Below are positions 1,188 to 57,468 of a stretch of 64,000 nt of DNA, piece by piece (within the stretch, counting starts at the first letter, position 1; every line of letters starts with the position of its first letter). A program made the translations under genes and the position numbers. This stretch comes from Amphiscolops sp. MND2022 (lineage: Eukaryota). The stretch spans positions 56,856,001 to 56,920,000 of the forward strand of contig OZ076409.1 in assembly GCA_964187785.1 (NCBI GenBank), given 5' to 3'. Under the pieces are notes generated by a model that saw only the letters and a program-made list of their open reading frames with translations, searched no databases and had not been told where the DNA came from.

Positions 1188-1188
1188 G

Positions 1189-9523: not shown

Positions 9524-9538
9524 TAGAAACTCGTTTTT

Positions 9539-22620: not shown

Positions 22621-22719
22621 TTTTTATGGAGATCGCATGGACAGTTTTTTTGAGAAATTCGAAATTTTCATTGGAAGGTCGGTAGAAAAACTTATTAGTG
22701 GAAACTATTGAGAAAACTC

Positions 22720-23130
22720 AATATCAAAAAAGTGAGAATTTTGAACATTCTCATAGTGCCAAAAAATGTAAAAGGGGAACCTTTGAGATTTTTCAACATC
22801 CGTTCTGTTGCGAAATATCAAAACAATTGAAGGGAACCCTTTGGAAACATTGAAGATGTTTGAAAAAAGAACGAAAAGCGAGAATTTTGAACAGTTTCAT
22901 AATGCCGAAAGATGCAAAAGGGGAACCTTTGGAATTTTTTATCATTCATTCTGTTGCAGAAATCAAAAAAATGAAGGGGACCTTTAGGAGACTCTTAAAA
23001 ATTTTTATTTAAAAAAGTCTCACAGTGCCGAAAAATTGCAGAGGCATTTAATCTCGTTCGGTTTTGTATGTTACGTTAACAAAGGAAAACATTAAAGGGA
23101 CCCTTTGCATTAACTTAGATGCGTTTCCGT
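22720..23130 (-). repeat. Internal fragment of the HINE-like repeat family
   Basis: Repeated gtgccgaaaa...aaaggggaaccttt units as in 28811-29430 and 56779-57468; termini absent. Confidence 0.6.
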
Positions 23131-24354: not shown

Positions 24355-26480
24355 TGTACACTTTCGATATAATTACGTACTTGATACGTTTTTCAAAAAA
24401 AAAATAAAATTTGACAACCGAGGGAAAAAATTACAACAGTTTATTTTGTCATTACGATAATTCAACATTTTTGAAACACCAAAATGCCGAATTCATCCTC
24501 TTGTTAAATAATGATTTGGTTCAACTTTCTTTTGGTTCCCAACCAAAGTTTCTCTGAAAGAACATTCTGCTCTGAGTCAGTTGAGTGGAGCCAATTTTCG
24601 CGTATTGCTTTTTTGTTGAGAATTGGTGGTCCAAAATGGCGCAAAATGCAAAACTTAATTATTCAACACGCATTTTTCAAAAACATTCAATTCAACATTT
24701 ACGGCAGTGGTCCCGATATAAAGAATAACAAGCTTAAGATTGAAATGAGTGCAGCCGACTCCCGAGATCTTGCTTTGATTTTGAGATCTTTTCAAATAGA
24801 CCTAAATTGAATGATTTTGATAGGTGGATTTATTCACGTGGACCCATTTAATGCATTTGTACATAATTTTTATGTTCATATAACAGTAGTTTTTGTCTGA
24901 GATTTACAATCATATTTATCGGCAATGGTCTCACACGAAAGTGAATCACCGTTGAAACGACTAGAGGAAAGCCAATCTGTGACATTTTGATTTGTTTTGA
25001 ATCTAACTAAGAAAATCAGTTGTATTCTAAGAAAGTCGAAAATCGTTTTTCTCCAAATTGAAAAATTGGTTTCAGTCTGTCAAACCGTGGGATGTGATTT
25101 TCCTCGTACTCCGATCGCTTCTGCTACCTGAGTTCTCGGGAGCCTTCATTATTTCGAATGAAGTTTTAAACTAATTCAGATTTTGGATTCCTGAGAAGCT
25201 TTTGACAAAGTTTTGGGAAAGAAGTTTTCGATAAACAACCTTTTGGACAACACTCAAACCCTATGCCTGGTTTGAACTGTCTAGAAAAACGTTCCCCTCT
25301 GTCGATTGCAAAAGCATTTCGCCTCTGGTTTTCAAATAGCTAACGCAAACATTTCTAAGACCAAAAATTGCCAAGAACAAACATTTCTAGAAAAATGATT
25401 TAAAAACTATGTTGCTCGACCCACTCTTTCTGGAAGGTCATCATTCCGAAAGACCTGTTTTTTCTAACATTCCTGGTCGGTCATGGTAAATACTTCGCAT
25501 CAAAATTTTGTATGACCTATTGGACGCCAATATGCAAATGAAGAGCAGTAAAACTAGAAACTTCTGTCTTTATTGATAAGTTTTATATTGACGCAGCGAA
25601 GTTTTTATGAAACAAATGGTATAAAATGGGAAGATAAAACTACATGGCAATTTTCTGGGGCGTGTCGCCTGCAAAAAACTTATCAGGCCCATTTTTTATA
25701 CCAGTTGTCTCCTCTGAAGTTGATACGCTTCGTATAATTCAGTCTCATTAGAATTTTGTAGACCTCTTTTGAGACAAAAAAGACTCGAAAATGAGTTATG
25801 GTGTAATAGAGTACGTCTCGAGAATTCGAAATTAGTCTAATTCTAATGATAAAAGCATTGAACAAACCTTCCACAAATGCAACAGTGACCGACACAAACT
25901 TTTTTCCATCCGGTGCAAAGTAAACGAGGCTTATGGAAAATGAAAAACTTGAAATGAAAATTTAGTCTAGTTCCAAACGTTTGATGGAAAAAGTAAACTT
26001 CAAGAAAATAATTTTGCCAAAGTTGTCTGGTGATGGAATTTCGAAATTCCATTGCCAGACATCTTTGAAAAGAGTCTGATATGGTAGCATATCATTCAAT
26101 TTTCAATTGCTTCAAACTGGAGCAAAAACTGGAGTTACTTTAATTTACATACATAATCTACTGTGTTGCTTCTGAGACGGTTAAAAGCGCCAGAGTCATA
26201 TGCGCGCCAATCAAAGGCAACTGGGGATTTGGTGATTCTTTGCTACCTACCCCAGCTTGAATTTCCTCACTTTGTTAATTAGTGATGAGTTTTTCATTTT
26301 AAATCAATACATCATAAATTGTTTCACTGAAAAATTCGAATATTTTGTTCAGAAATACCACAACTAGCTGGATAGGTGGTTTTAAATTTGAAAATACCAA
26401 ACTTGGCACCACCAGTGAGTGTTCATCAGATAGCTTTAATCAGGTTTGAATAGAATTGAGAAAAGTTAGCTCGAACTTAA

Positions 26481-27446
26481 TGTAACGTCATCCTCTAGTA
26501 CACCAGAATCAATCGATATTGAAATTTGAAAATGTTCAAAAATTTGATGAAAAATTCCAATTCGATGTGTGACGTGGCTCTAAGCATGTGATTGCTCTTT
26601 TAGCTGTTTCCACCGGGAGGGAAGAATAAAATCTAAAATAAGAAGATCTAAAATTGTGACATGCTCAACCTCGAAAAGGGGAATAACATCTAAACTTTTG
26701 CCAGTGGATCTTATTCCCGTCCTGAAATTTTAGATCTTATTCCCTTTAGATCGTGTTTCCTTTTTTGACTTTAGATCCTATTCTTTAGATCTTTTCCCCC
26801 CTTTAGTTGCCGCCATTTTCAATGCAAAACGAGGACGAGAGCAGACCGATCGAGGACAGAGAGAACGAGATAGCCTGAGAGCCCATAGAGACTGTGAAAA
26901 CCTCGAGAAAGACTCTTTTTTAGTGCAAACACTCGGTTTTTATTGATTTTCAGGAATATGCTACCCTACGTAGCGAGAAGCGGAGAAATGAATATTTTTG
27001 TTTACACATCCTTGTATGGTCCTTGGAGCCCCTGCGCCCCAGCTTGCAGCTGCGTGGTCTGCCATATTATTGCGTGCTTTGATGTATTTTAACTGTTATT
27101 AGCTGTATTTACTAGCCGGAAAACTAGTGTTTGCCGTGTTACACGTTATTCCCATGTCACCCTGACAAAGGAATTTTACACTGTTCATTTTTGGAACATT
27201 TTTAAGAACGATTCTTACGCGATGGTCCTGAGAAGAAAGCTAGATGCCCGTATTTTGTAGCAGTAAAAGACCGCACTAAGGTTGGAGAGCTTTTTCAGAA
27301 GACGGTTCCCCCTTCTCGGGACCGGCATCTTTGGGAGGGAAAATGGATAGATGCGTCGAAGCTGTCAGACCCGGACATCATACGTTTCCGTACTTATTCC
27401 GCCATCTTTTAATGTGATAAGCGACCTATCACTGCTTGCCGTTACA
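26481..27446 (+). mobile_element. Diverged solo LTR of the element B family, interrupted by a foldback-like insert at about 26614-26806
   Basis: TGTAACG...CGTTACA termini; collinear with LTR B (gatgtgtgacgtggc, ttggagcccctgcgccccagctt, aagacggttcccc); flanked by TAA on both sides. Confidence 0.85.
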
Positions 27447-28212: not shown

Positions 28213-28810
28213 CTGCGAAACAAACCGCAACATGTGAACGTTTAATTGTTTGCTTTATTCGGTCGGCGCATTTTGTGTTGAAAAAGCGCCTTTTCACCAC
28301 AGAGTCAGTTAGAAAAATAATCTCCTACTTTCTTGTTGAGCTTGTCAAACTCAATACGTGGAAGTCAAAAAGATATGTTAAACGTCCACTAAACACCGAG
28401 GTATTTTCTTTTCTGCTCATATCTACTCAATTTTACGCCATACTTTCATCATATCGTTCCGAACTTTCGAGAACGTTCTGATTCTAGACTTTTTTCATCA
28501 CGAAGTTTTGACATACCGTAACTGTAACAGCTACAAGGCTAGTTTTTTGTCGTTGAATTCTGTGGTCAGAACTCTATAATCGACAGAGCTCTATCATACA
28601 CAGAACTTGAAGTATAATATAATTAAAGTTAGTAGATAAATTTAGTCTTTCCCACTATTTGACATGGGAAATTAATGGACTAGTACACGAAATCTGAATT
28701 GAATTCAACTCATGTCATGCTGGTACGGCCAAGCATCTACAAACATATAAAACCTGAAAAACACCAAAAATAAAAACAAAACATGGCTTTCACCTGAGCT
28801 TGGTATTTTA

Positions 28811-29430
28811 AATAAGACGGGAACGTCTAAAGTCGGCGCTATATCTAAGGCTCAAGAAGCGCAAAGTTTTCTAAATATGCTCAGGAAGTAATCATGAAAA
28901 GCTTTGAAAACACTTTCGGGACACCCAAAGTGTGCCTTTCATGCTCGATATGACTGGAAAATCATTGTTTCCCGACTGGGAACAAAATTTGAAAAATTTT
29001 TTGAAATTTTTTTTTGAAAAAAAACTTCGAAAATGTCGCATAGTGCCGAAAAATGAAAAGGGGGGACCCTTTGGGATTCATTAACATACATTCTGTTGCA
29101 AAATATCAAAAAACTCGAAGGGGGGACTCTTTTGAGACCTTAAAAAATTTTCGAAAAAAAATTTCGCACAGTGCCGAAAAAAAATTGAAAGGGGGACCCT
29201 TTGGTCTCTTCCGGTTTTGTAGGTTACGTTAAAAAGGTAAAAAATGAAAGGGGGGACCCTTTGCACTAAGTTTTCATTGGCCTGACTTGGCGTGAGTAGT
29301 CTTATCAGTTTCTGTAAAAAGTGGTACATACGCGATGAGCTCTGTGGTCTGACGAAAAAAAAAGAAGAAAAAAACTAGCCACTGTAATAGTCGGGCTTTT
29401 TTCCTTAAAGGAAAAGGCGCCGACTAAAAA
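28811..29430 (-). mobile_element. Helentron-associated (HINE/DINE-1-like) non-autonomous element
   Basis: Subterminal inverted repeats AGTCGGCGC/GCGCCGACT, a stem-loop at one end, a small GC hairpin (agacgggaacgtct) at the other, T-rich termini on the minus strand and internal tandem units. Confidence 0.65.
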
Positions 29431-38312: not shown

Positions 38313-38968
38313 ATTATATTCTTTTATCCGGAATATGGTTTTATTATAGATCAACTTGAAACTTCAACACTGACTATGTCTCGTGAATGACTTTTTTTAA
38401 TAGATGCGAATACCTGCCTACCTCCAGGAGAGATCTAAGAGATTTCCTAAAGAAATAACGTCAATAGTTTAGGTATGGCGTTTTAACAGAATACGGTATT
38501 TTATTAGTGTAATTTTCAAAAAGATAGAAGTTCGTTAGATACACTTCTTAGATACAAACAAGACGCCCGCTAAGCACCGGGAGTTTTTCCGCCTTCTTCA
38601 CCTTCACCAACTGAGCCATGGCTATTTTAGGAGTGGGGAATAGTATTTTAAGTATAAGATATAAAATTCAGTGATTTTAGATCTTAATCCCTTCAGATAT
38701 TATTCCCGTCCTGAAAGTTTAGACCTTATTCCCTTTAGATCTTATTACCGTTTTTACTTTAGATATCATTCCGCCCTCTAAGTTGTTTTAGTTACTTGAC
38801 TATTTACCTAACTAGTAACTGAAGTATTCAAGTAGCTATATAAAATAATCAAGAAGTTGAGTCGACTGAGGACCTGGAAGGAGATTTGGCAGAATTTCGA
38901 GAAAAAACGCAACACAGATCATGATTTTCCTCCCCTATTAAATGTGGTCGGAAAACAAAAATCATAAT

Positions 38969-40463
38969 TGTAAGAACTTTGACCCGTGGTCTCTCTTAGA
39001 TCTCCCACAGATCGTGAATCTTTCTTTGCAATCTTTGTTTTAGGCCCAGATGCGTTTTCCCTATTTTCCTGGCTACTAGGGGACGAACTGGCCTCGGTGT
39101 CCCTGTGCCTCGTAGAGGACATTGAGTTAGCAATGTTTTGAATTTCTGGAATGACTCTTTCAGCTATAGCTGTTGTAATAGCTCTATTTATTTGACTATG
39201 CATCATTGACATCATAGAGTCCATTTCTTGAGATAATCCGAGGTTAAATTCATTTGAGAAAGTTTCAAAGAACTGTCTGACTTCATTTTGTCTCAGTAAG
39301 TCATTTTCATGCGAGTAATCTCTATATTCATTTTCTAGGTACGCGTTTGTATCAACGTCCCCGTGGGTCGACGACTGATCTATTGCTTCAGCTAATTCCC
39401 TTTTTATGGGATTATTATTGCTATTTCCCACCATCACGTCTAAGTTTTCAAAGTCGGACATCATGTCCATTTCTCTAGATTTCCTAGCTTTCGCTTTCTG
39501 ACGTCTAGTAGAAGGCATAAGAGATTATTGCAAGAGGTAAGAATTTAAATTAAGTTCTCAAGCTTGCAAACAGAGTTTATTTGAACGGTTTTAACAAACT
39601 GGTTCTAACGGTATCAAACAGTTGTTCCCCGGGGCTACGTGTCCCGGCTATATATACATGAATTTACATGACATTCAGTATTTCAACAGTCATGAGCTAA
39701 AAATAGCCTTAAGGGCTTTCTAAATATAGACTCAGCTATAAATAGCAACAATGACATTATCGTGACGTCACTCAGTTCAAAGGACTCCCCTGTTGGATGT
39801 TATGGCGGGAAGCCCGTGAGTCCGCAAATGCAATAAACAGCATACATGTATGAAATAAAACAGATTACATGCGTTTCAACATTTAACTGCTTTTCATGGC
39901 ATTGTAAGTAATAGCACTCTGTCTTGCATCATTCATGAGTCCTTTTGGGACTAATTATGTATATTGTAAGTTATTAGAGCATCATCAATTACGTAAGCAA
40001 TAGCACTTACTGGTTAGCACCTTTAATTTAATTGTGGACTCAGTGTCCGAGTGACACGAGCGGACTAGCACTTTATCGACCGACGGCATATGGCCGTCTA
40101 GTCCTTTGATTAAATAACTCAGTACAGCAACAAATGAAAGTATTACTGCACTCTGATTGGATAACGAGTTAATTGGACTGGTAGACCAAGGCGACAGGCA
40201 AGAAATCATTCGAACGCGTTTCCTTTACCTGTACGCCTTGGTGTCCAATTAACTTACGTATTAACACCAGTATATTAACTTTACATGTGATTATATAATA
40301 CCAAACATATTGTGATATAAAATATGAGGTTTGCATGACTTCTTAAGATAATTTTAAGAGTTTTGTCTGTATGTTTATTTTAGAGGAAGTGTGTAGGGCT
40401 GCACTTTCTTATAATTGTGGCAAATTGAATATACATTCCCATCACAGGCGGACGCCTGGGACA
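38969..40463 (-). repeat. 3' LTR of element C (1495 bp)
   Basis: Matches 53881-55375; TG...CA termini; contains a second copy of the gag 5' part (ORF 38919-39518). Confidence 0.95.
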
Positions 40464-41214
40464 CTCCCCCTGGAATCAGCATAAAACAGCCCACTCTCAA
40501 TCTTTCCAGGAGGGCCAGTCTTCTTGCGTTGAACTGCTCGGCTGATTCTCCCCGTATGGCCGTTTTATGAAGGTAATCAATGACTGCCTCATCTTGAATT
40601 TGTTCCTCAGATTTCCCGCAAACGAGGCAATCTGTACAGCCTGAGATATAGGGGTTGTCACCGCCATTCGGTCCCCTGAAGTGGATGCCGTTGGAATGTT
40701 GCTGACTGTTACTAGTAGTGGCTTCTGCTGCTATCCTCCAGTCGCCTGACGGGTATTTATCCCTGGCTGGGGGTGACATGGGCGTGTCGACCATGGGAAT
40801 TAGTTGGCTGCATAAATTGATTGGGTGGTCATTTCTTAGCCGTGAGTCTCTCGCAATTGGTCCTCTGCCCATTCCCAAGTCAAAGTAGCCAGCATCGAAC
40901 ATAGGCCCAGGGATGTACGGTAGCCTGGGAGTTGCAGCACGAGCCACTTCTTGTTTACTGGCAGTAGAGGGAATTGGAATACTTTCTGAAGTTGACGGTA
41001 ATTCCATCTGCCTCTCCACACACTGAGCCAGGAGGGCCACCTCGTCGTCATCGGACAGGCTTTCCAAATCGTCAACAGATGCACTGCTAGCGCATTCCAT
41101 GTCGTCGTCTGAGGAAATGTAGATTACCCCGTCTCCGGGTGCTGCCCCTTGGAAGTCCTCAGGGTAATATTCCGGGGACTCAGAGTCAAAGTGGCTTGAC
41201 AAGAATTTATCCAT
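40375..41214 (-). CDS. Accessory sense ORF of element C (279 aa; acidic N-terminus, SIM-like VIYISSDDD, CxxCxxC), last 89 nt inside the 3' LTR
   Basis: Intact ATG-to-TAA ORF, GC-richer than the flanks; reads through the PPT (IPGGVSQA); no signal peptide or TM segment evident. Confidence 0.75.
   Translation of the reverse strand: MDKFLSSHFDSESPEYYPEDFQGAAPGDGVIYISSDDDMECASSASVDDLESLSDDDEVALLAQCVERQMELPSTSESIPIPSTASKQEVARAATPRLPYIPGPMFDAGYFDLGMGRGPIARDSRLRNDHPINLCSQLIPMVDTPMSPPARDKYPSGDWRIAAEATTSNSQQHSNGIHFRGPNGGDNPYISGCTDCLVCGKSEEQIQDEAVIDYLHKTAIRGESAEQFNARRLALLERLRVGCFMLIPGGVSQASACDGNVYSICHNYKKVQPYTLPLK
40464..40473 (-). promoter_or_regulatory. PPT of element C
   Basis: Minus strand CCAGGGGGAG abutting the TGTCCC LTR start. 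Confidence 0.8.
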
Positions 41215-42493
41215 GATCAATTTCTTGGCTATTTTGGAATTGACTGAAGGTTTTCAAGTTTTGACTTTCTGAAGAGTTGCTGATTTTTGAGAATGAAACT
41301 GAAACAATGGCGATTTTACTCTCCGTCGACTTGCGGGAGTTTTCGTTTGAGTTTCCCGGGGTTTTACTCTTCCTTGCTGACTAAATTTTCAATAACAAAA
41401 TTCCTTCCTTCTAGAACCTTTCAACTAGCCGCTCGGTCTTCTTTGAAAATGCCGACCGAGGCTTTGTTGACTTACATCACCTCTATCAACACTCCCATAT
41501 TAAACGCGTCGCTTCAAGTGTTTATTAACACTCATTTAGCACTTAAGAGTTTCAAGAGGGTGAAGATATGGCATACGGCTACGCCGTCCTTCAGCAGTTT
41601 TGATTAGCCAATAGGAATGCAGCATGATTCTTCCTGAATGAAAATGGCTCCTCAAGGTCGTAAATCCATATAAGGACTAATGTAAAATGACCTTGAAATT
41701 GAATGAAATCTTGGAAAATCATGAAATAATTTGTAAAAATGGTACAGTTTCGAAATAAATAAGTGATTGTAGATATCGCTGGCAGACTCCATCCACATGA
41801 TAATGTAAATTGTAAATAATTGCAAATTTGACACCAAATTGTATAGCCACGAACTCCAATTTTGACACTTTGTCACATTGCCGATTCACCTTTCAATTCT
41901 TTTACATTTGAATTCTCTCCAATTACTCTCTTTGTATTATCGCCAGTATTTAATCTTCTTTAGTCTTCTAGTCTTTGAGTCGTATTTATCCGTACTTTGT
42001 CTGAAGTTTCCATTTATATTTTCTCCTCGTTACACCTTCTGTGGATTTCTTGGGTCAACCTAGGACAATCGACACTGAGTCCCTTTTGGCAAACCCACCC
42101 ATATTCAGCATTCTCTCCCTCTTTCAAAGAAGAATCTGCTCCTCTCGCTCAGCAGCTGCTGTATAATCACTATTTCGGATCCAAAATACTTCTCCTCTGC
42201 AGATCGACCTCCAGGACTGACAATTCATCCGGCATCCGCAATCTGCACTCAGAACTTTTCTCCTTCAATTTAGTCCGCACAGGTCAGTAGCGTTTCAGGG
42301 GTTTTCATTTCTATCTTTGGTAATGAACTAATTTGAGGCTTGATCAGGGCTCTCATTTCATTCACGTACTTCCTGTCCCGTAACTTAAGCATTCACTTGA
42401 GTTCAAATATCTACTTCCGGAAGGTTTTTTAATGCGGCAATGGACTCTTTTTCAGGAAGTTCTCCGCTTGAATTTATCTTTTTCTATTTAGAC

Positions 42494-45400
42494 ATGTCGT
42501 CCGAAGAGCACAATGAAGTTGTTCCCGCTACCGCTACTGGGACTCTGGTAGAAGAAGAAGTTCCACAACAGTCCGAGGAAACAGTCGTCAACCAGACCGC
42601 CACCGCAATAAAGGACGCTGAGTCCAAGCAGCCTGATCCGCCGAAAGACAGCTCATCTAAGACTGGTCCAACCCCCAGCCCTTCCACCGATGAGAGTATC
42701 TCTGCGTACATTGAGCGTCAGTTGCAGACTCTAGGTTGTCAAGATACTGGACTGGACATCTCTTTCTTGCCTCCTACCACATCTGCCATCGTGGACAATG
42801 TGCTAAAGCCAACCACTGCGAAAGCTTCGGAGTCGGAGCCGATCCCTCACGTCGCAACCGGGCCGGCAGACAAGGAGTCTCCCGAATTTGAGACTGGCCG
42901 AACAATTGACATCGTCAGTGAAGCTGAGTTTTCCGTCACCAAGGCGGATTATTTTCAAACAGACACCAGCGACGTTGAAGAGCTTCTCGATAGTTCTGGA
43001 GCTGAGACTGTCAAACAATCTCCATTCTTACTTACAATAGAGACACAAAGCGCCACCGGGTCCGAGGCCCGTAAGGAGACTGAACAATTGTCCTCAGCAG
43101 GGTTGCCAGACGTCTCTTCCCCAAAGCTTTTTAGTCCTACCAAGCCTCTATCTGCTTCAGCTCGCACTCTCATTAATCAACATTTCAGCGAGACCAATCC
43201 AAGTATCCTTCCAGTAGGACACGCAACAGTAGCCTTCAATCAAGGACAGGTACATTCCATTTTGCGCGCCGTCTCCACTGAGACCATTACCTCTTCTTTA
43301 CACCAAATGAAGAATATACTGGAAGAAGCGATTCGGGTGGGGTCCGTTCCCAAGGCACCTCACAAGGACCCGGTAAACAGCGGATCAAATGTTTCCGCAA
43401 ACAGGCTGACAGCCCTGGACCAGATGGGCAAGATAGCGACATCGGGACTGAGGGGTACACCAGTGGAGCCCTTAGTTCAGAGGATGAGTTTGTCATCAAC
43501 TCACAAAGGACTGGTAAGGAGCTTAACATCATTCATCCCCCAAGTCCTCCTGGCCAGGCTTCGTCCCTGGCGCCTTGGCCGACACCCATGCACCAAGTCC
43601 CCAGTCCAGGTTTCTGCTCAACTGATTATGAGCCGTTGGCCACATTGAGCACTGACCAAGCCTCCGCTTCTAGTCCACCCCGCAAACGTCGCCGTCTTCC
43701 AGGACGCACTGGTAAGATAATGAAGGAGGCTTATTTCAAAGGATCCAATCGACCCGAACATTCGTCACTGGCCCACTCGACCCGGAGCACAACAAGCATA
43801 AATTCTATTGTCAAATATGCAAGACGAATGTTTCCATTTTCACAAAAGGTGCCCGGGAGATTGTCCGTCATTTCCAGTGTGAATCCCATTTCCGCAAGGA
43901 CCAGCGCTGGAGATATGAACATCTGAAGAAGAAGGATAAGGTGACTGGCCGAATCGTCTATGAGGTCAGGGGGAAGAAGGGCCAACTGCTAACACCTCTG
44001 GAACTTGAAAGAGAGAAACCCCTCTTTATGCAGGCTCCTTTAGTAGAAACTGGATGCAGCTACCCATTTTACGAGGACCATATGGCAGGCCTGGGATCCA
44101 TAGCTGGGCAGGAAGAGATCAGACTGTGCGTCCAAATCTCCATGGTTGCACTCTTTGCTCCTCGCTGTGAGGATTTATACACCCTTGAGTTGCTGTGGTC
44201 ACAGATTGGCACTGTAACCAATCTTCAGAGCCTGTTCTCTCCATACGATTGGGGTTCCTCCACATTGACAGTAAGTATCGTTAGTTCCTAGCCTCAGGGT
44301 TCTTCCGTACTAGCATAGCTTAGGTATATTTTCATCCTTGTTGATTTGTTTCAGACAATTTTCCATCACATCTTTCTCTGTGGAATTGCGGACATCGCGT
44401 ATCATGTCAGTGTCACGGGCCAATACTCTTTGGAGTTTGAGATGCGAGGCACCTACAGCTTTGTCTCGATTCGTTTCTGGAAGGGCGAATTCCTCAACGT
44501 CTTCTGTTTACTGCGTTACCGGACTGCTTCAGAGCCTGCTGCCGGTTTCTTGTTGGCACTTTCCCGTCTCCTGTCCGTGTTGTCAACACAGCCCCAAATC
44601 GTGAGTGTGTCTGGATGTCCCGCTGAGCTAATCCCGCTTCTTGAGCGTTCTTGCTTCTTCCAAAAAGGATTTGAGTACCCCTTTCGGTTTGATGCACTTT
44701 CTTTGCCAGACATGATGCACGAACGATGGGGGAAGCGTGTTTGGAACCATCAGCTTTTTTTCACAGCTGAAGTTTCTGGTTGCCTTCTTGGACGGCTGCA
44801 GTGGACAGCCCTGGGCCGCCCTAATGCCTGAATTCGTCAAGGTAAGGGTATTGTCTGTTCGACTGTAGGTCCAAGTTTAGACTGCCTCTAATGCACATAT
44901 TATCTGTAGGCTATGTCTACCCATCGTGTGGAGGTCGCTGCTGTGCCAACCATATGTTCGGAGCTGATTGCGAACTGGAAGTCTGTGCACCAACACTTGA
45001 CAAAAATTGCGCCTCCACAAGTTAATCAGGGGGTCAAGAGCAAGCCCCAAAGTCTCGAGTGGGAAATCATATCTGATGATCTCTTCACCATCAAACTAGA
45101 ATTCTTCGCACGAATTGTTCGTGATTGTTAGTATTTTGATCTTTTCTTTCTGTTCTGAGGACACAATGTCTCAGTTTTATTTGCCATTGAATAAAGTTCA
45201 TACAAGGTGTAGCAGATTGACATATTTGGTCCAATGACGTCGTTAGGACCAGGTGGGACAATAATATATTTTGTTTTCCAGACACCAAGAGCTTTGAGAG
45301 TCAGTTTGCACAACGAAGGGATAGCGGTTTCTACACTTTCCGCGAATTTCATACCTTCATCCGAAAACTGGCTGCCCGGGCTCTTCTCCCCAAACACGTA

Positions 45401-48400
45401 CCTGAGATGCTGGACTGGAAGTCGCTATGTGACTTACAAGGACAGGACTGGCGACAGCTGTCAAATCGCGATTTCTTGAGTCGGTTGAAACTCAAAGAGA
45501 ATCTGGATGCTGCATGCCTCGTTCGTGTCAAGAAGGTCTACAGTGAGAAACAGCCGTCCCCCGAAGGAATAGAAGCAGCGGTTGAGGCCACACGGGACGA
45601 TTTCGCCACCAAGGCTCGAGGTTACCTCGTGCATCTTTTGAAAGTCTTCCTTGCTGTCCTCAGCAGGGTTGCCAGACGTCTCTTCCCCAAAGCTTTTTAG
45701 TCCTACCAAGCCTCTATCTGCTTCAGCTCGCACTCTCATTAATCAACATTTCAGCGAGACCAATCCAAGTATCCTTCCAGTAGGACACGCAACAGTAGCC
45801 TTCAATCAAGGACAGGTACATTCCATTTTGCGCGCCGTCTCCACTGAGACCATTACCTCTTCTTTACACCAAATGAAGAATATACTGGAAGAAGCGATTC
45901 GGGTGGGGGTCCGTTCCCAAGGCACCTCACAAGGACCCGGTAAACAGCGGATCAAATGTTTCCGCATACAGGCTGACAGCCCTGGACCAGATTGGCAAGA
46001 TAGCGACATCGGGACTGAGGGGTACACCAGTGGAGCCCTTAGTTCAGAGGATGAGTTTGTCATCAACTCACAAAGGACTGGTAAGGAGCTTAACATCATT
46101 CATCCCCCAAGTCCTCCTGGCCAGGCTTCGTCCCTGGCGCCTTGGCCGACACCCATGCACCAAGTCCCCAGTCCAGGTTTCTGCTCAACTGATTATGAGC
46201 CGTTGGCCACATTGAGCACTGACCAAGCCTCCGCTTCTAGTCCACCCCGCAAACGTCGCCGTCTTCCAGGACGCACTGGTAAGATAACGAAGGAGGCTTA
46301 TTTCAAAGGAATCCAATGGACCCGAACATTCGTCACTGGCCCACTCGACCCGGAGCACAACAAGCATAAATTCTATTGTCAAATATGCAATACGAATGTT
46401 TCCATTTTCACAAAAGGTGCCCGGGAGATTGTCCCTCATTTCCAGTGTGAATCCCATTTCCGCAAGGACCAGCGCTGGAGATATGAACATCTGAAGAAGA
46501 AGGATAAGGTGACTGGCCGAATCGTCTATGAGGTCAGGGGGAAGAAGGGCCAACTGCTAACACCTCTGGAACTTGAAAGAGAGAAACCCCTCTTTATGCA
46601 GGCTCCTTTAGTAGAAACTGGATGCAGCTACCCATTTTACGAGGACCATATGGCAGGCCTGGGATCCATAGCTGGGCAGGAAGAGATCAGACTGTGCGTC
46701 CAAATCTCCATGGTTGCACTCTTTGCTCCTCGCTGTGAGGATTTATACACCCTTGAGTTGCTGTGGTCACAGATTGGCACTGTAACCAATCATCAGAGCC
46801 TGTTCTCTCCATACGATTGGGGTTCCTCCACATTGACAGTAAGTATCGTTAGTTCCTAGCCTCAGGGTTCTTCCGTACTAGCATAGCTTAGGTATATTTT
46901 CATCCTTGTTGATTTGTTTCAGACAATTTTCCATCACATCTTTCTCTGTGGAATTGCGGACATCGCGTATCATGTCAGTGTCACGGGCCAATACTCTTTG
47001 GAGTTTGAGATGCGAGGCACCTACAGCTTTGTCTCGATTCGTTTCTGGAAGGGCGAATTCCTCAATGTCGTCTGTTTACTGCGTTACCGGACTGCTTCAG
47101 AGCCTGCTGCCGGTTTCTTGTTGGCACTTTCCCGTCTCCTGTCCGTGTTGTCAACACAGCCCCAAATCGTGAGTGTGTCTGGATGTCCCGCTGAGCTAAT
47201 CCCGCTTCTTGAGCGTTCTTGCTTCTTCCAAAAAGGATTTGAGTACCCCTTTCGGTTTGATGCACTTTCTTTGCCAGACATGATGCACGAACGATGGGGA
47301 AGCGTGTTTGGAACCATCAGCTTTTTTTCACAGCTGAAGTTTCTGGTTGCCTTCTTGGACGGCTGCAGTGGACAGCCCTGGGCCGCCCTAATGCCTGAAT
47401 TCGTCAAGGTAAGGGTATTGTCTGTTCGACTGTAGGTCCAAGTTTAGACTGCCTCTAATGCACATATTATCTGTAGGCTATGTCTACCCATCGTGTGGAG
47501 ATCGCTGCTGTGCCAACCATATGTTCGGAGCTGATTGCGAACTGGAAGTCTGTGCACCAACACTTGACAAAGATTGCGCCTCCACAAGTTAATCAGGGGG
47601 TCAAGAGCAAGCCCCAAAGTCTCGAGTGGGAAATCATATCTGATGATCTCTTCACCATCAAACTGGAATTCTTCGCACGAATTGTTCGTGATTGTTAGTA
47701 TTTTGATCTTTTCATTCTGTTCTCAGGACACAATGTCTCAGTTTTATTTGCCACTGAATAAAGTTCATACAAGGTGTAGCAGATTGACTTATTTGGTCCA
47801 ATGATGTCGTTAGGACCAGGTGGGACAATAATATATTTTGTTTTCCAGACACCAAGAGCTTTGAGAGTCAGTTTGCACAACGAAGGGATAGCGGTTTCTA
47901 CACTTTCCGCAAATTTCATACCTTCATCCGAAAACTGGCTGCCCGGGCTCTTCTCCCCAAACACGTGCCTGAGATGCTGGACTGGAAGTCGCTATGTGAC
48001 TTACAAGGACAGGACTGGCAACAGCTGTCAAATCGCGATTTCTTGATTCGGTTGAAACTCAAAGAGAATCTGGATGCTGCATGCCTCGCTCGTGTCAAGA
48101 AGGTCTACAGTGAGAAACAGCCGTCCCCCGAAGGAATAGAAGCAGCGGTTGAGGCCACACGGGACGATTTCGCCACCAAGGCTCGAGGTTACCTCGTGCA
48201 TCTTTTGAAAGTCTTCCTTGCAGACATCAGCCTCAATGCTGGTATCGTAAGAGGCTTGGTCAGTTTTGATCCAGTAGCCCTCCTGAGTCTGCCGCTTGAA
48301 CAGGCCACATATTGTTTCTCCGCTTTATATCGATCCTTCAGTTTGCGAGGATGGTTGGAGAATTCCCCCGAGGCCGATGCCCGAGACGAGTACATTGATT

Positions 48401-49104
48401 TTGTGGAGCACTTCCGTCAAGCAAATTCTGGAGCCAAGGACACCCCGGAGGTCTTCTCCGACATGATTGCCTTTCTGATGGACATGCTCGAATTGAAGTT
48501 GCGTAAGCATTTGTTCTACATCTTCCAGTTGAGTTGTCTGTGTCTGACTTCTAAATTGCCAGAGCTCCCAGCTATCAAATTCTCTGGAGTTGACTGCAAT
48601 GATCCCCGGAGTAGGCTTTTCGATGTCATCATGCCTGCACAGTCCTACCTCGCTAATGTGGCTAATTCAGTAGCTGTGTGTACTACAGAAGCTTCCCTGG
48701 ATACTTTCAAGGATTTGGAGTTTCGTTTCAGTAGCGGCAACGTCCCAGGAGATCCTTGGACTCACGTAGACAGTTTCGGCAAGGCCAATTTGCATAAGAT
48801 CTTGATCTCAGTTTACAAGGCTCTGGGCAAGAGTGTTCGTCTTGACAACGAGTCCATTTCCAGTTCTTCGTCTAAAGAAGGGGGAAACATCGTAAGCAGT
48901 CCCCCGATAAAGGCAAGAAAGTTAGCTTTCGGATGGTTAGCGGAACTGAAGCCACAAAGTCCTCCGATGGAAACACCCCCGGAACTTCTAAATCTTAAAT
49001 GTACAAATGTACATTTGTTTCTAGACTGTAATTGTTGTAAACTGTTTCGTATTTATTTCATCTATTTGTTGATATGTTCGTGGCCTTGTATCATTCGCCA
49101 CTGA
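42494..49104 (+). pseudogene. Antisense spliced gene inside element C: about 1,200-1,250 aa zinc-finger protein with hAT-transposase-like motifs, disrupted here by a tandem duplication
   Basis: Reconstructed exons 42494-43088+45655-46838, 46923-47408, 47477-47693 and 47849-49104 (or 48998 with a late frameshift); GT-AG introns 46839-46922, 47409-47476 and 47694-47848 all preserve frame; CQIC-x16-H-x5-H finger; NLS-like PPRKRRR. Confidence 0.8.
43089..48221 (+). repeat. Head-to-tail duplication, 43089-45654 and 45655-48221 (about 2.57 kb, about 99% identical)
   Basis: Junction ...gtcttccttgc|tgtcctcagcagg at 45654/45655; ORF pairs are duplicated; the first copy carries three extra 1-bp indels. 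Confidence 0.95.
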
Positions 49105-49228: not shown

Positions 49229-52200
49229 CTAGTATCTGTATTCTTCAGTGAAGTTGGGGTTGGGGTTAGGTCGAAGATTGTATCTCCCTCCTCTAGAGTT
49301 TTCTTCAGAATTTTCTTTTTCCGATATTCCGGGCACGGTAATATCTGCGCCTCTATATGAAACATTTCCTGCATCTTGTAAATCATTAGTGACGTCATTT
49401 TCATTTTGCGTACTATTAATCTTTTCATCCCATAGTGACGACACGTCTCGGCTATTACGCGATTGCGTTCGCGTTTCGTTCTCGTTGACGTCATCCTCGT
49501 TAGAGCGTTCGCTGTGTCCTTCATTCTCGCTTGCGCTGCCACGTTCATTCTCGATGACGTACTTTTCTACGCTGCCGTCCTCAGTGTCGGTCGGCCGGCG
49601 TGTGGCCACGTCGGTCCAATCGACTTTTCTCGGTTCAAATAATTCGTATTCGAAATCCACTTCCCATGAGATACTGTACAAGTCGTCCTGTGGTACTACA
49701 ATCTCATTGTCAGGTTGTAATTTTTCGCCATCATATTTGTCCTCTAAGGGGGCATTTGGAGCGAATTTCTTTCGTCTAATACGATGGAGTATTTGCGTTT
49801 TATTAGTATTCAATCGACGCACAATGTAATTGTCATTGGACAATACTGTCTGAACGACAGAGGGGCCAATCCAGCGGTATTCCCTAAATGGGATTTTTGA
49901 TGCTTGGTTATCCGCTTTAGGTTGTAAAACGAAGCAATAATCCTTCTCTTCAAGCGGAGCGGCTTTGGCCTTTCGGTCGTAATAGTCTTTGTTTTTTAAA
50001 TAGGACTGCATAATGTTCTTTTTAGTCTGGACAATGAGGATTTGTGTCCTCTGTTGTACTTCCTCCGCAAATTCCGTAGTTGGCAAGAAATTTTTATTGG
50101 GGTTATTTCCCAATTTGTGATCTAGGACGTTAAAAGGAATTCTGCCATGAAAGATTTTACTCGGCTCACATCCAATACTGGAGTGGTATGTAGTATTGTA
50201 GTTGAGCACGGCCAATGGCAAATATTTATGCCACTGACGTCGATATTCCCCTGAGGCCATTTTCAAGTTGGTCTTGAGTGAGGCGTGCGTCCTCTCGAGC
50301 TTGCCAATTGTTTGCGTGTGCTTTGTAGTGGCGCATTTGAGTGTTATGCCTAAAAGTTGAGTTATCTCAGCTATGATGGTTGATGTAAATGCGGACCCTT
50401 TGTCCGTAATAAGAGTTGTCGGTAAATATGAATGTTTCGTCATAATGTCTATTATTACTTTGGCTACACTTGTGGCTGTTGCCTCAATTAGCGGGTAGGC
50501 GAATAGGTATCTTGAAAAAACATCAATAGCTGTCATTACTGTTTGGTAGCCTCCACTGGTCGGTAGATTTGGTAACAAATCAATTTGCATGGCGTCTTCA
50601 GGACCGAGGTCCCATTCGGGCAGATTTAGCAATTCCGGTGTAATAGTATTATTAGGGACTCTTTTGTCTCTGGCACACGTTTCGCAGCCTTCTACCCATT
50701 TTTTGACATGTTTAGCTATTCCGGGATAGTAGTATTTTTGGCGAATTTCTTGTAGCATTTTAGATATGCCTGGGTGTCGGTGTGCCATGCCATGTATTGC
50801 TTGTAGTAATTCTTTCAACAAATGTTTTGGCAGTAGAATCTGGTGGTATTTGATTTGGCCTGTTTCATCATAGTATTTCCAGTCACGATTTCGTCTTTGA
50901 GGACAATTCGGTCTAGGTTATTCAAATAATGTCTATACCGAATGTCTTGATGGAGGATTTCTTCAGAGTATTCCTCATTCCGAATTTTTGCTTTTTATTG
51001 AAGCAAGATCGGATCTTTGGATTGTTCTAGCAGTATTTGGTTAGTTCTGCGTAGTTTCTGCGTGAAATTAGTATATTCTTCTACAACGTTTCCAGATATG
51101 GCATCAATCTGGATGGCGGTCTCTGCGACCTTGAGTCCTGTTTTCGACTGCCTTTTTCGTTCCCAAATTTGTACTTCCGTTTCATTGTCTTCCTCAGTAA
51201 AGAATACTTGTTCTACTTCGGACACACCGGCCGATTGTACATTGACCTCAATAGGTTGTGTTTCAACGTCCGCACGAATCTTCAGGACTAACTTTTCATT
51301 AGGGTCCATTTCCATACGGGACAAGTAGTCTGCCGCTGTACTGTTTTTGCCTGGAATGTGAGCTATAGTGAAATTGAACTTAATGACAAAATCACAAGCA
51401 TTCCATAATGGCGGCGGTACGATCTTGGTCTGGAAGAACCTTGTGACCGATTTGTTGTCCGTAAGGATAATTACCGGTTTGGGTGTCCCCCAGAATGTAT
51501 GTCCGAATTCTTTAAATGCGTAATATATAGCGAGAAATTCTTTCGCATATATCGACATTTTGAGTTGGGAAGGAATAAAAGTTTTCGAACCATAAGCAAT
51601 AGGCGCGTAGGATTTCTTGACAGAAGTGAATTTCTGGTTTGGGTCGTCTTCAGTGAGTATAGCGAATCCTGCTGCCGTAAAGCTGGCATCTGTCATCAGG
51701 ACTAGCTGTCGATTCGGCAGTGGTTGCCTCAGGGCTAACTGCCTACATCGATCCAGGTCTCTATTGATTTCGTTAAATTGTTCGATTAACTCGGATGTCA
51801 CTAAGACCTTCTCGTCCTTCTTGAGTAATTGAAAGAAGGGTACCAATTTTTCTGAAAGTCTCGGTATGTAGTTTCTGTAGTAATTGAGGAATCCGAGGTA
51901 TCTTTGCAAGGCCTTTTTGGATTTCGGGAATTTAGTTTTTTCTAGGAAGTTTGTAATAGCTTCCTTTTGAGGTTTGACGCCCTCAGGGGTGATTGTTCTT
52001 CCCAGAAAGTCTATTTCGGTTGCGCCGAAATGGCATTTGTGCTTAGTCAATTTTAATCCAGCCTCTCTGATGCATTCAAATGTGGCTCGGAGGTTTTTGA
52101 TCAAGTGTTCAGCATCATTTGCCGCTATGCCAATATCATCGACATATTGCGCACATTGATCAGCCTTGATAACTCGGTCCAAGGATTCCCTCAAAAAACT

Positions 52201-52752
52201 GGAGAAGGCCGACAGGGCTCTACTGAGTCCTTGAGCCAATCTTCTGTAAGCAAAGGTTCTGCTGGCAAAATTGGAGGCCAGCATTTCAATAGACCTTTGG
52301 TCTGCCATTTGAAGGCAGTGATATGCCTGTGAGCAATCGAGTTTGCAAAAAAGCTTCTTCCCGGCCATATGTTGCGCAGCATCCGTCAAGGTACTAACTC
52401 GGTGGTTATTATTAATATAATCATCGGAGATCAAATTGTTGATCTTCCTAAGGTCTACTAATACCCGAAGCTTCCCATTTGGCTTCTTTTGCGCAAAAAT
52501 AGGACTGGCGTGTTTTGAGAATGGTAATGTGGTTAAGATACCGTATTTGTGGAGTAACGCCAACTCAACCAGGATATCCTCTTTTAAATTGATGGGAGTC
52601 GGTAAGCTTTGGCTATAGGCAGGTGAGTCGTCCTTCGGGGTCAGTTTGACCGTGAACTCCTCGTTCATCCCAATATCAAACCTATGGCGGGCGAATATGT
52701 CGTGAAATTCTACTAAGAGAGCTTCTATTTGTTTGATTTCATGCTGCTGTAG
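49229..52752 (-). pseudogene. pol: Pol of element C: RT, RNase H, integrase; protease missing; stop at 50995 and frameshift near 50880
   Basis: RT: LRVLVDLRKIN, KLDCSQAYH, LAQGL, QYVDD, DFLGRTI. RNase H: TDAS, AKEF, TDNK, ADYLSR. Integrase: H-H-CETC, IDLL, ITDKGSAF, GKLERTH and GPY/F-like WIGP. Confidence 0.95.
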
Positions 52753-54430
52753 TCAGTCTTTTTGGTATTGGTTTGGCTTGAACTAGTAGCCGTCGAGTCA
52801 CTGGTTGTTTTAGATTTGCCTTCCGAGGTTGAAGCATTTGCATCCTTTTGCTCTGTCTGCAGTCTCTTGGGACGCAGGTGGGCACCAGCGCCCTGCCAAC
52901 ATCTTTCAATTGAATGGTTCTCTTTTTCCCGCATGTGTCACATGGTGGGTAAGTTGGGCGCTGTGGTTTTTTGCCATCTTTTTCCTCCCTTTCTTTTTTT
53001 TTCTTGAGTTTAGGACAGCTCTTGTAATAGTGTCCCGTTGCTTTACAATAGGAGCATTGGGCATCTTTGTTGGTATTGATGCCATTAGACAGCAAATTGC
53101 TCTGATTCGTGGACGCCGAGGCCATAGTGGCCATTGGCAAGTCATCTGACTCTTCTAGTGCATTGAGTTCTAGTTCTTTTTCGAGATGAGCAACAATTTC
53201 TTCGTACGTTCCGTTCTCCAACCGGGCCATGTTGACAGATTGTTTTAGTTTTGGTGGAAGTTTTGCGTATAGTAAGCTGTCAATCATGCTTTTGGCATTT
53301 TCGCCAAAAGCCTTTTCAGCCCCTTGGTTCAATTCTTCTAAGAAGTCCGGCAATTTCATGGTACTTGGGTCAAACGTCAGTCGGTGCCATTTGTGTTTTG
53401 CCGTTGCTTGGGATTCCGGTTTAACATACTTTCTCCGGAATATGACCAGTACGTCCTCCAGAGTCTGACGGTTGGTGGAATTTATGTTCCTGAATGTCTG
53501 TAATGCCCCTTTTCGTAACAATGAAAGAAAATGATTGATTTTCATCTGTTCTGTCATTGTAGGTTGCATTTTGATCATCGTATGGAACAAGTCCTCGAAA
53601 AGCTCAAATTTTTCGTTTTTCCCGTCGAATGTCATTGGCGTTGTTTGGACAGGTCTAATGGTCATATTGTGAGGTTTGTTCTGTAAATTGACTAATACAT
53701 CAGCCAATCTATTAAGCGGGTCCTGAGATGTCTCTGGGACCTCGAGGTCCGGGGCTGTCAGAGTCGCATCCAGAGAGACATTGTGGTTAGATTGTTGCCT
53801 CTCCAGGTTGGGGATTGAGTGGATTCGTCCAGTCAGAAATTCAGGGATTTGCTGTTGGGTGTAAATAGCTCCTGTCACCATGTAAGAACTTTGACCCGTG
53901 GTCTCTCTTAGATCTCCCACAGATCGTGAATCTTTCTTTGCAATCTTTGTTTTAGGCCCAGATGCGTTTTCCCTATTTTCCTGGCTACTAGGGGACGAAC
54001 TGGCCTCAGTGTCCCTGTGCCTCGTAGAGGACATTGAGTTAGCAATGTTTTGAATTTCTGGAATGACTCTTTCAGCTATAGCTGTTGTAATAGCTCTATT
54101 TATTTGACTATGCATCATTGACATCATAGAGTCCATTTCTTGAGATAATCCGAGGTTAAATTCATTTGAGAAAGTTTCAAAGAACTGTCTGACTTCATTT
54201 TGTCTCAGTAAGTCATTTTCATGCGAGTAATCTCTATATTCATTTTCTAGGTACGCGTTTGTATCAACGTCCCCGTGGGTCGACGACTGATCTATTGCTT
54301 CAGCTAATTCCCTTTCTATGGGATTATTATTGCTATTTCCCACCATCACGTCTAAGTTTTCAAAGTCGGACATCATGTCCATTTCTCTAGATTTCCTAGC
54401 TTTCGCTTTCTGACGTCTAGTAGAAGGCAT
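52725..54430 (-). pseudogene. gag: Gag of element C, starting inside the 5' LTR; frameshift in the second zinc knuckle near 52920
   Basis: 563-aa ORF with FDGKNEKFELFEDLF capsid-like region and CSYCKATGHYYKSC; CDTCGKK/NHSIERC is split across frames. Confidence 0.9.
53869..53880 (-). promoter_or_regulatory. PBS of element C, tRNA-Leu-like
   Basis: TGGTGACAGGAG directly after the LTR CA; one mismatch to TGGTGTCAGGAG, the complement of the tRNA-Leu(CAG) 3' end as recalled. Confidence 0.6.
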
Positions 54431-55375
54431 AAGAGATTATTGCAAGAGGTAAGAATTTAAATTAAGTTCTCAAGCTTGCAAACAGAGTTTATTTGAACGG
54501 TTTTAACAAACTGGTTCTAACGGTATCAAACAGTTGTTCCCCGGGGCTACGTGTCCCGGCTATATATACATGAATTTACATGACATTCAGTATTTCAACA
54601 GTCATGAGCTAAAAATAGCCTTAAGGGCTTTCTAAATATAGACTCAGCTATAAATAGCAACAATGACATTATCGTGACGTCACTCAGTTCAAAGGACTCC
54701 CCTGTTGGATGTTATGGCGGGAAGCCCGTGAGTCCGCAAATGCAATAAACAGCATACATGTATGAAATAAAACAGATTACATGCGTTTCAACATTTAACT
54801 GCTTTTCATGGAATTGTAAGTAATAGCACTCAGTCTTGCATCATTCATGAGTCCTTTTGGGACTAATTATGTATATTGTAAGTTATTAGAGCATCATCAA
54901 TTACGTAAGCAATAGCACTTACTGGTTAGCACCTTTAATTTAATTGTGGACTCAGTGTCCGAGTGACACGAGCGGACTAGCACTTTATCGACCGACGGCA
55001 TATGGCCGTCTAGTCCTTTGATTAAATAACTCAGTACAGCAACAAATGAAAGTATTACTGCACTCTGATTGGATAACGAGTTAATTGGACTGGTAGACCA
55101 AGGCGACAGGCAAGAAATCATTCGAACGCGTTTCCTTTACCTGTACGCCTTGGTGTCCAATTAACTTACGTATTAACACCAGTATATTAACTTTACATGT
55201 GATTATATAATACCAAACATATTGTGATATAAAATATGAGGTTTGCATGACTTCTTAAGATAATTTTAAGAGTTTTGTCTGTAAGTTTAATTTAGAGGAA
55301 GGGTGTAGGGCTGCACTTTCTTATAATCGTGGCAATGTGAATATACATTCCCATCACAGGCGGACGCCTGGGACA
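53881..55375 (-). repeat. 5' LTR of element C (1495 bp)
   Basis: Matches 38969-40463; TATATATA at about 54568-54561 and AATAAA at 54493-54488 on the minus strand, upstream of the gag ATG at 54430. Confidence 0.95.
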
Positions 55376-55550
55376 ATAATGTAGTAATAAGATTTTATTG
55401 TCTTTCTTAATACTTTGAAAATCTTTTTTTTTCATTTCACTTACCAAGAGGTTTGAGTAAAACATGAAAAATAATCTGAGTAGAACAAATAAAATGTGCG
55501 ATGATTGACTCTGAATTTAGGAGATTCTAATCGCAGCTAAGTATAAAATG

Positions 55551-56778: not shown

Positions 56779-57468
56779 AAACAAGCCGAGAACGGCCAAA
56801 GTCGGCGCTATATCTAAGGCTCAAAAAGTGCAAAATTTTCAAAATATGCTCATGACGTTTTTTTATGAAAAACTGGCAAAAAAGTTTCACCCAAAGGAAG
56901 CCTTCCGTGCTGAGAAAACGCTTCAGAAGTTCGGATATAGCGGCTGGGACAAATGCGAGCACTTGTTTTCGAACCTCCGCCTCCTCCTCAGTGAAACGGA
57001 ATATACTTCGGAAATAACGTCAAAAATTCGCATATAGCGCTTTACTCCGGATACTACGTATTGAGAAAACCTAATGTCAGATGAAAATGACAATTTTGAA
57101 CAGTCCCATAGTGCCGAAAAATCTGAAAGGGGGACCCTTTGGGATTTTCAAACATCTATTATGTTCTAAAATATCAAAAAAATTGAAGGGGGGACCCTTT
57201 GGTACAATCAAAAAATTTTCGAAAAAAAATCTCATAGTGCCGAAAAAAAATCCAAGTTAAAAACACCCAGATAGCCAAAGTGGGGATCCTTAGTTGTTTT
57301 CAAGGTTCTGGACATCGGTTTTATAATTTTGGATGAGGTTCTAAGGTTTGCGGTATGTTTTTGTCAAACTGAACAAATGAACAAAAAAGTGGACCTTACG
57401 CGAGTAAAAAAAACTACCCACTGTAAGAGTCGGGCACATTTTCTACTAAAATGCGCCGACTAAAAAAA
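56779..57468 (-). mobile_element. HINE-like element
   Basis: Same termini as 28811-29430: aagccgagaacggcc aaagtcggcgct...agtcgggcacattttctactaaaatgcgccgactaaaaaa. Confidence 0.65.

Follow-up and report, generated by a model that had tools for sequence, protein, structure and literature searches.

What does a retrotransposon encode in a reading frame that opens between pol and its 3′ long terminal repeat (LTR) and stops only inside that repeat? The question is raised by a 64,000-nt stretch of DNA from Amphiscolops sp. MND2022 (assembly GCA_964187785.1, contig OZ076409.1, positions 56,856,001 to 56,920,000; hereafter the window), in which a gypsy-type LTR retrotransposon of 16.4 kb carries, in sense with gag-pol, an accessory open reading frame (ORF) that we call ORF2. 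An earlier note on this DNA had proposed it as a candidate transactivator or anti-silencing factor with a motif for binding SUMO (small ubiquitin-like modifier). Comparisons with its relatives indicate that ORF2 is almost certainly a real gene under selection; the role suggested in the note is also the one that we prefer, tentatively.

ORF2 and its overlap with the 3′ LTR

40375..41214, minus strand: ORF2, accessory gene, 279 aa, ATG start
40375..40463, minus strand: the final 29 ORF2 codons with the stop, within the 3′ LTR, including the conserved C257
40464..40473, minus strand: polypurine tract, in-frame P-G-G
38969..40463, minus strand: 3′ LTR, 1495 bp

Self-comparison of the window gave a pair of LTRs of 1495 bp each, 99.3% identical with 10 differences and bounded by TG...CA (start TGT, end ACA). 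The coordinates and this mapping agreed with the 279-residue sense frame of the earlier note. Its further claim, that the frame reads PGGV across the polypurine tract (PPT) and stops 89 nt into the repeat, was borne out at the junction: in CCA GGG GGA G/TG TCC (P-G-G-V-S, the slash marking the LTR start) the valine codon spans the boundary, and the 89 nucleotides of ORF2 inside the 3′ LTR include the stop. Calling this part U3 is an assumption, as R is unmapped. The sequence directly before the 3′ LTR copy, the PPT, is CCAGGGGGAG. By chance, a stop-free frame of 279 codons is expected about 0.009 times per window, and the window holds no further ORF2 copy except the 89 nt in the 5′ LTR.

A protein search with ORF2 returned 1,453 candidates, among which 78 clusters (at 90% identity) had E <= 0.01; these summed to 1,052 member sequences. 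An exhaustive search yielded 236 representatives at 50% identity (E <= 0.001). The family carrying ORF2 is very abundant. Lengths of 255-290 aa were found for 90 of the 146 members listed; none of the members read had a name, and their sources were ENA and, for one, JGI. Length, start, stop and motifs were kept down to about 25-30% identity. The motifs that the alignments showed to persist at 23-30% identity were H-P-I-x-x-C135, D-T-P-x-S-P-P and C196-x-x-C199-G, then a segment of two helices, S-Q-x-x-x-C257-D-G and, at the C-terminus, P-x-T-L/I-P. At 6 residues the window protein departed from 85% or more of the 36 close copies; over all 37 copies this number ranged from 0 to 16. The earlier note had staked its idea beforehand on the frame and its motifs being conserved among copies, and the frame, the SUMO-interaction-like motif and the cysteine motif were found in hundreds of copies from many subfamilies, with conservation at the protein level also within the LTR.

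At the DNA level ORF2 was compared with two independent metagenome contigs (L001 and L002, 2 of 44 metagenome candidates); among viral contigs, none of the 36 candidate stretches held a relative. Between the window and L001 the proportion of differing silent sites (pS) was 0.78 and that of differing replacement sites (pN) 0.44, and over the comparisons with both contigs pS was 0.76-0.82, meaning saturated silent sites, and pN 0.44-0.51. Within the first nine codons inside the LTR, 8/9 residues were the same as in L001, with silent changes in 5/8 of these, and 7/9 were the same as in L002, with silent changes in 4/7. Since residues are kept there and silent sites have changed, the constraint lies on the protein as well as on the attachment DNA of the integrase. 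The junction phase was alike in both contigs (...GGGGAC/TGTC and ...GGGAG/TGTC), which argues that the overlap between ORF2 and the LTR is old; we infer the LTR start at these junctions, shortly beyond which the contigs end.

The SIM-like motif and the C-terminal module

41101..41127, minus strand: forward SUMO-interacting motif (SIM)-like sequence VIYISSDDD, residues 30-38, with CK2-type serines, in the acidic N-terminus
41029..41049, minus strand: reversed SIM-like motif DDEVALL, residues 56-62, doubtful in the window's subfamily
40768..40827, minus strand: H-P-I-x-x-C (residues 130-135) and D-T-P-x-S-P-P (residues 143-149, proline-directed phosphosite-like), from the alignments
40492..40629, minus strand: CxxC knuckle and, after it, a hairpin of two helices, residues 196-241, the only part folded with confidence, predicted local distance difference test score (pLDDT) 79-96 by 10-residue block

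Both VIYISSDDD and CTDCLVC (residues 193-199), the motifs singled out in the earlier note, are present in ORF2. Forward and reversed SIM patterns were scanned over 157 of the 366 proteins from the ORF2 search (those of 240-300 aa), which at 70% identity fell into 28 clusters. In 17/28 of these at least half of the members had the forward pattern; of the 15 clusters that comprised two or more proteins, 13 were among them. In the other two multi-member clusters (the P0225 and P0226 groups) the core was lost and the reversed pattern was present in 6/7 and 4/4 members; at least one singleton, P0071, begins downstream of the motif position. By chance the motif arises in about 5% of shuffled proteins, and no match was seen in 2,955 aa from six further ORFs of the element. 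The motif lies in an acidic region (net charge of residues 1-75 in the window protein, -18; median over the first 80 residues of the 157 proteins, -16), and pLDDT values below 50 around VIYISSDDD in the AlphaFold model mark this region as disordered. In its sequence make-up, a hydrophobic core with a Ser/acidic flank in a disordered and conserved setting, the motif is that of a phospho-SIM, and we consider it fairly probable that it binds SUMO. An acceptor site of the type psi-K-x-E/D was not present in the window protein, and no evident DNA-binding region or nuclear localization signal (NLS) of its own was found in it.

Structure prediction, which the earlier note had suggested, was informative for one part of the protein. 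The full-length AlphaFold model (32 sequences) was poor, with a mean pLDDT of 46; residues 113-279 alone (167 aa, 89 sequences) reached a mean pLDDT of 62 and a predicted template modelling score (pTM) of 0.36, and were confident only in the CxxC knuckle and helical hairpin, at about residues 193-241. The cysteine motif of the note was likewise conserved in part: C196 and C199 of CTDCLVC form a CxxC kept across the family, but C193 is not kept. Together, the four conserved cysteines (C135, C196, C199 and C257) suggest one predicted zinc site.

Homology searches attached ORF2 to no known family. Pfam returned no family for ORF2, and the 32 aligned members gave scattered weak matches (best E 0.011); PDB sequence profiles reached a best E of 0.03, and the ESM Atlas held no usable match, which is not proof of novelty. 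Fold searches were non-significant (Foldseek against PDB, best E 4.4; BFVD, best E 0.72; VIA-align, best Z 5.0 with a root-mean-square deviation of 3.0 over 46 residues). Recurrent matches to RNA-polymerase chain J and subunit N were rejected, as they reflect the CxxC-plus-helix pattern alone. A SUMO-targeted ubiquitin ligase, in which a SIM is joined to a RING domain, was also rejected, because a RING needs eight ligands and ORF2 has just four conserved cysteines and two partly conserved histidines, widely spaced.

The divergent partner gene, the host element and its surroundings

42440..49104, plus strand: ORF1, antisense accessory gene, broken in the window copy by frameshifts and a tandem duplication
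41215..42439, no strand: spacer between the start codons of ORF2 and ORF1, 1.2 kb, divergent
41515..41613, minus strand: candidate internal promoter, an inverted CCAAT and a CACT(T/C)(G/A) cluster, 300-400 nt upstream of the ORF2 ATG

Beyond what the earlier note described, ORF2 stands head-to-head with an antisense gene, ORF1, and has a probable internal promoter. ORF1 starts 1,226 nt upstream of ORF2 on the opposite strand and has a Ser/Thr/Glu-rich N-terminus, a C2H2-type finger (Pfam match weak and below cut-off, E 0.002) and a conserved last exon. It contains GT..AG intron-like segments at 46839-46922 and 47409-47476, together with their duplicates. Introns antisense to the element RNA survive reverse transcription, so these segments would persist through it. 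A recent tandem duplication of 2.57 kb (43089-45664/45655-48231, 98.9% identity) lies within the gene.

The last exon of ORF1 gave 68 clusters with 858 members, none named, and its members fell into identity classes (at least 70%, 60-69% and below 60%, in clusters of at least four) as 422/35/343, compared with 468/49/462 for ORF2. Ten longest contigs of the same size occurred in the match tables of both ORFs (76 and 67 distinct values); four of the shared contigs were shorter than 50 kb (of 21 and 13 such values), and for these the identities matched at 71/77, 76/74, 45/51 and 90/81. These data suggest that the two ORFs travel together. A hAT transposase has a BED-type finger, an RNase H-like DDE core and a C-terminal dimerisation domain; ORF1 may resemble such a transposase with its catalytic acids apparently lost, a likeness that no tool confirmed and for which Pfam and PDB gave no support. 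For one ORF1 relative the ESM Atlas returned only unnamed clusters at 0.91-0.92, again not proof of novelty, and longer relatives were not found, which is weak evidence. Of 101 pairs, the longest 25 included no convincing terminal inverted repeats around ORF1, which disfavours a DNA transposon nested there recently. A complex prediction for the last exon of ORF1 with the C-terminal part of ORF2, in which alignments were not used, gave no answer (score 0.00).

Upstream of ORF2, the window element, L001 (1-130) and L002 (200-330) each had an inverted CCAAT and after it CACT(T/C)(G/A) in four copies, against 0.5-0.8 expected. The simplest reading is probably a divergent internal promoter upstream of ORF2; alternatively, there may be splicing or trans-splicing onto the ORF2 leader. 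The clusters resemble what we take to be NK2-homeodomain sites. They could alternatively be candidate sites for the ORF1 finger.

53881..55375, minus strand: 5′ LTR, 1495 bp
55376-55380 and 38964-38968: target duplication ATTAT, 5 bp
53863..53880, minus strand: position of the primer-binding site (PBS), begins TGG, adjoins the 5′ LTR
52739..54430, minus strand: gag, with its ATG at LTR nt 946, inside the 5′ LTR, and a frame that runs across the PBS
50995..52752, minus strand: reverse transcriptase (RT) / RNase H, by Pfam and PDB sequence search
49229..50917, minus strand: integrase (H2C2 zinc domain and rve), with a break between integrase and RT

The host element shows the LTR ends, target duplication, PBS, PPT and RT-RNase H-integrase order of the Ty3/gypsy type, the Pfam order being RVT_1, RT_RNaseH, Integrase_H2C2 and rve. 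The best PDB matches of the RT were 7ksf/7kse (E 2e-27) and 8r0s, then 4ol8 and Ty3-G 7q5b (E 2e-23 to 6e-23), a match ranking and not a tree; Pfam matches of gag were weak (DUF1759 and a zinc knuckle). No D[TS]G protease motif was found in any minus-strand frame of the element copy, in which gag abuts RT (52739-52960), and we therefore call the element gypsy-type and not a complete Ty3/gypsy member; the missing protease is probably an internal deletion in the window copy. Pfam gave no chromodomain after the integrase core, and the 64-kb window contained no tRNA genes for identifying the primer.

The LTR is coding at both ends, with the last 29 codons of ORF2 and the first 550 nt of gag. A 199-aa ORF at 38919-39518 is merely the 3′ LTR copy of the gag start. 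Six of the ten LTR differences fall within the first 92 nt (40372-40425 vs 55284-55337; P ~1e-5), the part that codes for ORF2, possibly by gene conversion from another copy or by a local assembly error.

Other repeats share the window. At 1-6110, direct repeats of at least 1188 bp (1-1188 and 4923-6110, 99.3%) surround two ORFs, one gag-like (1217-2056) and one acidic (2168-3322); the whole looks like a non-autonomous LTR element. A third element at 8740-17077 has 785-bp direct repeats (99.1%) and fragmentary ORFs, with an older related repeat at 26480-27200. A dispersed AT-rich repeat family of 60-86% identity (21900-23100, 28800-29270, 56780-57250, 59500) probably consists of non-autonomous DNA elements.

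A possible SUMO-docking regulator, its rivals and its meaning

The reading that we prefer, at a probability of roughly 40% for the mechanism as a whole, is that ORF2 encodes an acidic regulator that acts in the nucleus, docks onto SUMO and either counters silencing of the element or activates it. ORF2 would be transcribed from a divergent promoter inside the element, which ORF1 would use as well. Its product would be a mostly disordered 31-kDa protein with a phospho-type SIM in its acidic N-terminus and a proline-directed phosphosite; near the C-terminus, C135, C196, C199 and C257 probably let a small module bind zinc. The protein would act in the nucleus, its SUMO binding enhanced by CK2, and would dock non-covalently onto SUMOylated chromatin or silencing factors; once docked, it would counter SUMO-dependent silencing and/or recruit co-activators, so that more of the element is transcribed. 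Lacking any evident region for binding DNA, ORF2 would depend on a partner for its targeting; the zinc-finger product of ORF1 is a speculative candidate for this part.

There is precedent for the type of motif. In IE2 of human cytomegalovirus (HCMV), a CIVI core is flanked by CK2 serines whose phosphorylation lifts SUMO affinity 8-fold and raises transactivation (bioRxiv 10.1101/655282). In Drosophila, SUMO is needed when piRNAs guide the silencing of transposons through SetDB1 (10.1101/533091). A bolder version, which we hold to be rather unlikely, makes the two genes one divergent cassette: ORF1, a domesticated dead DNA-transposase-like zinc-finger protein, would read the element DNA, and ORF2 would be the SUMO-binding effector that disarms piRNA/SETDB1-type silencing there.

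Several observations weigh against the reading as a nuclear SUMO-docking regulator or against parts of it. The regular expressions, which we took to represent SIMs, describe a short and loose motif. Among singleton clusters 8/13 had neither pattern, and the Ser-Ser-acidic part was kept in 23/28 clusters compared with 17/28 for the hydrophobic core, so that the site may be chiefly a CK2/acidic patch. In the window protein the reversed motif falls within a helix, weakly predicted by AlphaFold, which makes it doubtful in this subfamily. SIMs draw in repressors as readily as activators, and the motif does not set the direction of the effect. An NLS-like pattern was present in only 13/157 proteins, and the zinc site was unresolved in the AlphaFold model at its pTM of 0.36. 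Over all ten shared contigs the ORF1 and ORF2 identities were uncorrelated (rho -0.07), and two large contigs disagreed. The promoter motif was picked after inspection, so that its shuffle p of 0.002-0.006 is optimistic, and CCAAT was not enriched. Separately, the earlier note had stressed that the frame is intact in an otherwise mutated element; it is intact, but the argument is weak, because with 2-4 lesions per 5.2 kb of gag-pol a stretch of 840 nt escapes with P = 0.5-0.7.

Of the rivals, nuclear export in the manner of Rev or CERV survives best, and we still regard it as unlikely. ORF2 would bind unspliced genomic RNA directly or via an adaptor, oligomerise through its cysteine module and export the RNA under control by phosphorylation. 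CERV of the Cer1 element is a nuclear, phospho-regulated protein that may have a C4 finger and lacks any recognised RNA-binding motif; it is needed for export of genomic RNA and not for its transcription (PMC10309623); ORF2 likewise has four conserved cysteines and a conserved TPxSP site, and the genomic RNA of the element exceeds 13 kb. However, ORF2 is strongly acidic, with an Arg-rich stretch (at least 5 Arg in 12 residues) in 3/157 proteins, although CERV too lacks one. The intron-like segments are moreover antisense to the genomic RNA, which lessens the need for an export factor, and the 517-aa CERV is spliced from gag-region exons, unlike ORF2.

Slightly less likely again is self-restraint, in which the SIM would draw SUMOylated repressors of the SETDB1 type to the element, or dampen its promoter, and so limit copy number or timing. 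This account uses the same ORF2 motifs as the regulator that we favour. Recruitment of SetDB1 goes through SUMO-SIM contacts (10.1101/533091), and foamy-virus Bet suppresses basal activity of the internal promoter (PMC13220597). The great abundance of the family speaks against restraint, as does the acidic N-terminus, whose interspersed aromatic and hydrophobic residues resemble, by composition and on general knowledge, an activation domain.

On a par with self-restraint we place a cofactor of the particle or of integration: ORF2 would ride in the virus-like particle or the pre-integration complex, and its SIM would serve nuclear import or steer the complex to SUMO-rich chromatin, in the manner of Vpr/Vpx or of a chromodomain. 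The lack of a chromodomain after the integrase core in Pfam would leave room for this, the conserved extreme C-terminal P-x-T-L/I-P could serve as a docking peptide, and retroviral accessory proteins can aid nuclear import (PMC7264820). Yet the searches turned up nothing homologous to such proteins, and a promoter of its own, used jointly with a zinc-finger gene that looks nuclear, would suit a regulatory cassette better. Explanations other than those named in this section are together quite improbable.

A membrane protein, env-like or small, that helps the element to spread from cell to cell is suggested by the location of ORF2, in sense and flanked by pol and the 3′ LTR, but is very improbable and largely refuted: in agreement with the earlier note, which saw no env hallmarks, ORF2 has no signal peptide-like N-terminus, no N-glycosylation sequon and a maximal 19-residue hydropathy of 1.35, and only 3/132 relatives exceed 1.6. 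Least probable of all is a non-functional frame, open by chance or because the PPT and the LTR end are constrained in cis. The unremarkable intactness of a single copy and the V/L-S dipeptide at the junction, imposed by the TGTC start of the LTR, could be cited for it, but it is refuted by the length, start, stop and motifs kept down to low identity and by residues kept, even in the LTR, at saturated silent sites.

By the tests run, ORF2 belongs to none of the known systems; it is most like foamy-virus tas/bet in layout, IE2 in motif, and Retand/Grande in being family-wide and unexplained. The tas and bet genes overlap the 3′ LTR and Tas has an acidic activation domain; it binds DNA by itself, whereas ORF2 has no evident basic DNA-binding region. 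They are non-env regulatory 3′ genes under an internal promoter, as is proposed for ORF2, and Tas activates both this promoter and the LTR. A foamy virus is, however, a retrovirus with env, for which no sequence or fold link to ORF2 was found, and the partner gene in our element is antisense and divergent. The ORFs of nef in human immunodeficiency virus (HIV) and sag in mouse mammary tumour virus (MMTV) overlap the PPT and U3, and the likeness to these drawn in the earlier note holds for position alone: Nef is myristoylated at Gly-2 and Sag has a type II membrane anchor, whereas ORF2 starts M-D-K, without Gly-2, and has no transmembrane segment. VANC of the VANDAL (Mutator-like) plant DNA transposons, a proposed self-encoded anti-silencing factor that causes sequence-specific loss of DNA methylation, is like ORF2 in proposed role.

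In the plant elements Retand, Grande and RIRE2 a long 3′ internal region separates pol from the 3′ LTR and holds family-wide extra ORFs without explained function; that of Grande is antisense, has a promoter to itself and encodes a nuclear product, and that of Retand has a transposase-28-like domain (PMC7264820, PMC11963269). Here, by contrast, an animal element has a sense ORF with a SIM that crosses the PPT into the LTR, in a head-to-head pair with an intron-bearing antisense gene; the available part of PMC11963269 contains neither 'SUMO' nor 'intron'. CERV is comparable as a nuclear, phospho-regulated, Cys-rich retrotransposon accessory protein without homologues outside its lineage, properties some of which are putative in ORF2; it differs in its 517 aa, spliced exons common with gag, G-protein-like domain and role in RNA export (PMC10309623), compared with 279 aa, an unspliced coding region and a 3′ location for ORF2. 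In HCMV IE2 a four-residue hydrophobic core followed by CK2 serines is required for full transactivation (10.1101/655282), a likeness of motif type only, and IE2 has SUMO acceptor lysines beside its SIM, unlike ORF2.

Extra 3′ ORFs in LTR retrotransposons are of an already known kind. A literature search through listings, with few subscription journals covered, found no paper on the ORF2 family or on a SIM-bearing accessory protein of an LTR retrotransposon, nor on the head-to-head pair or the selected read-through into the LTR; the family may already be catalogued in repeat libraries or supplements.

To our knowledge, the non-env accessory genes of LTR retrotransposons mostly have no assigned function, and counter-silencing encoded by the element itself is poorly documented in animals. 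The layout of this element is unusual, with both LTR ends coding and a head-to-head gene pair in the 3′ region. ORF2 represents an old, abundant and selected family with a testable motif directed toward SUMO, a pathway needed for transposon silencing, and offers hundreds of natural variants, including lineages that seemingly swapped the forward SIM for a reversed one. If the two-gene cassette were true, it would be a case of self-encoded, sequence-targeted anti-silencing in an animal retroelement, and could help to explain the very high copy number.

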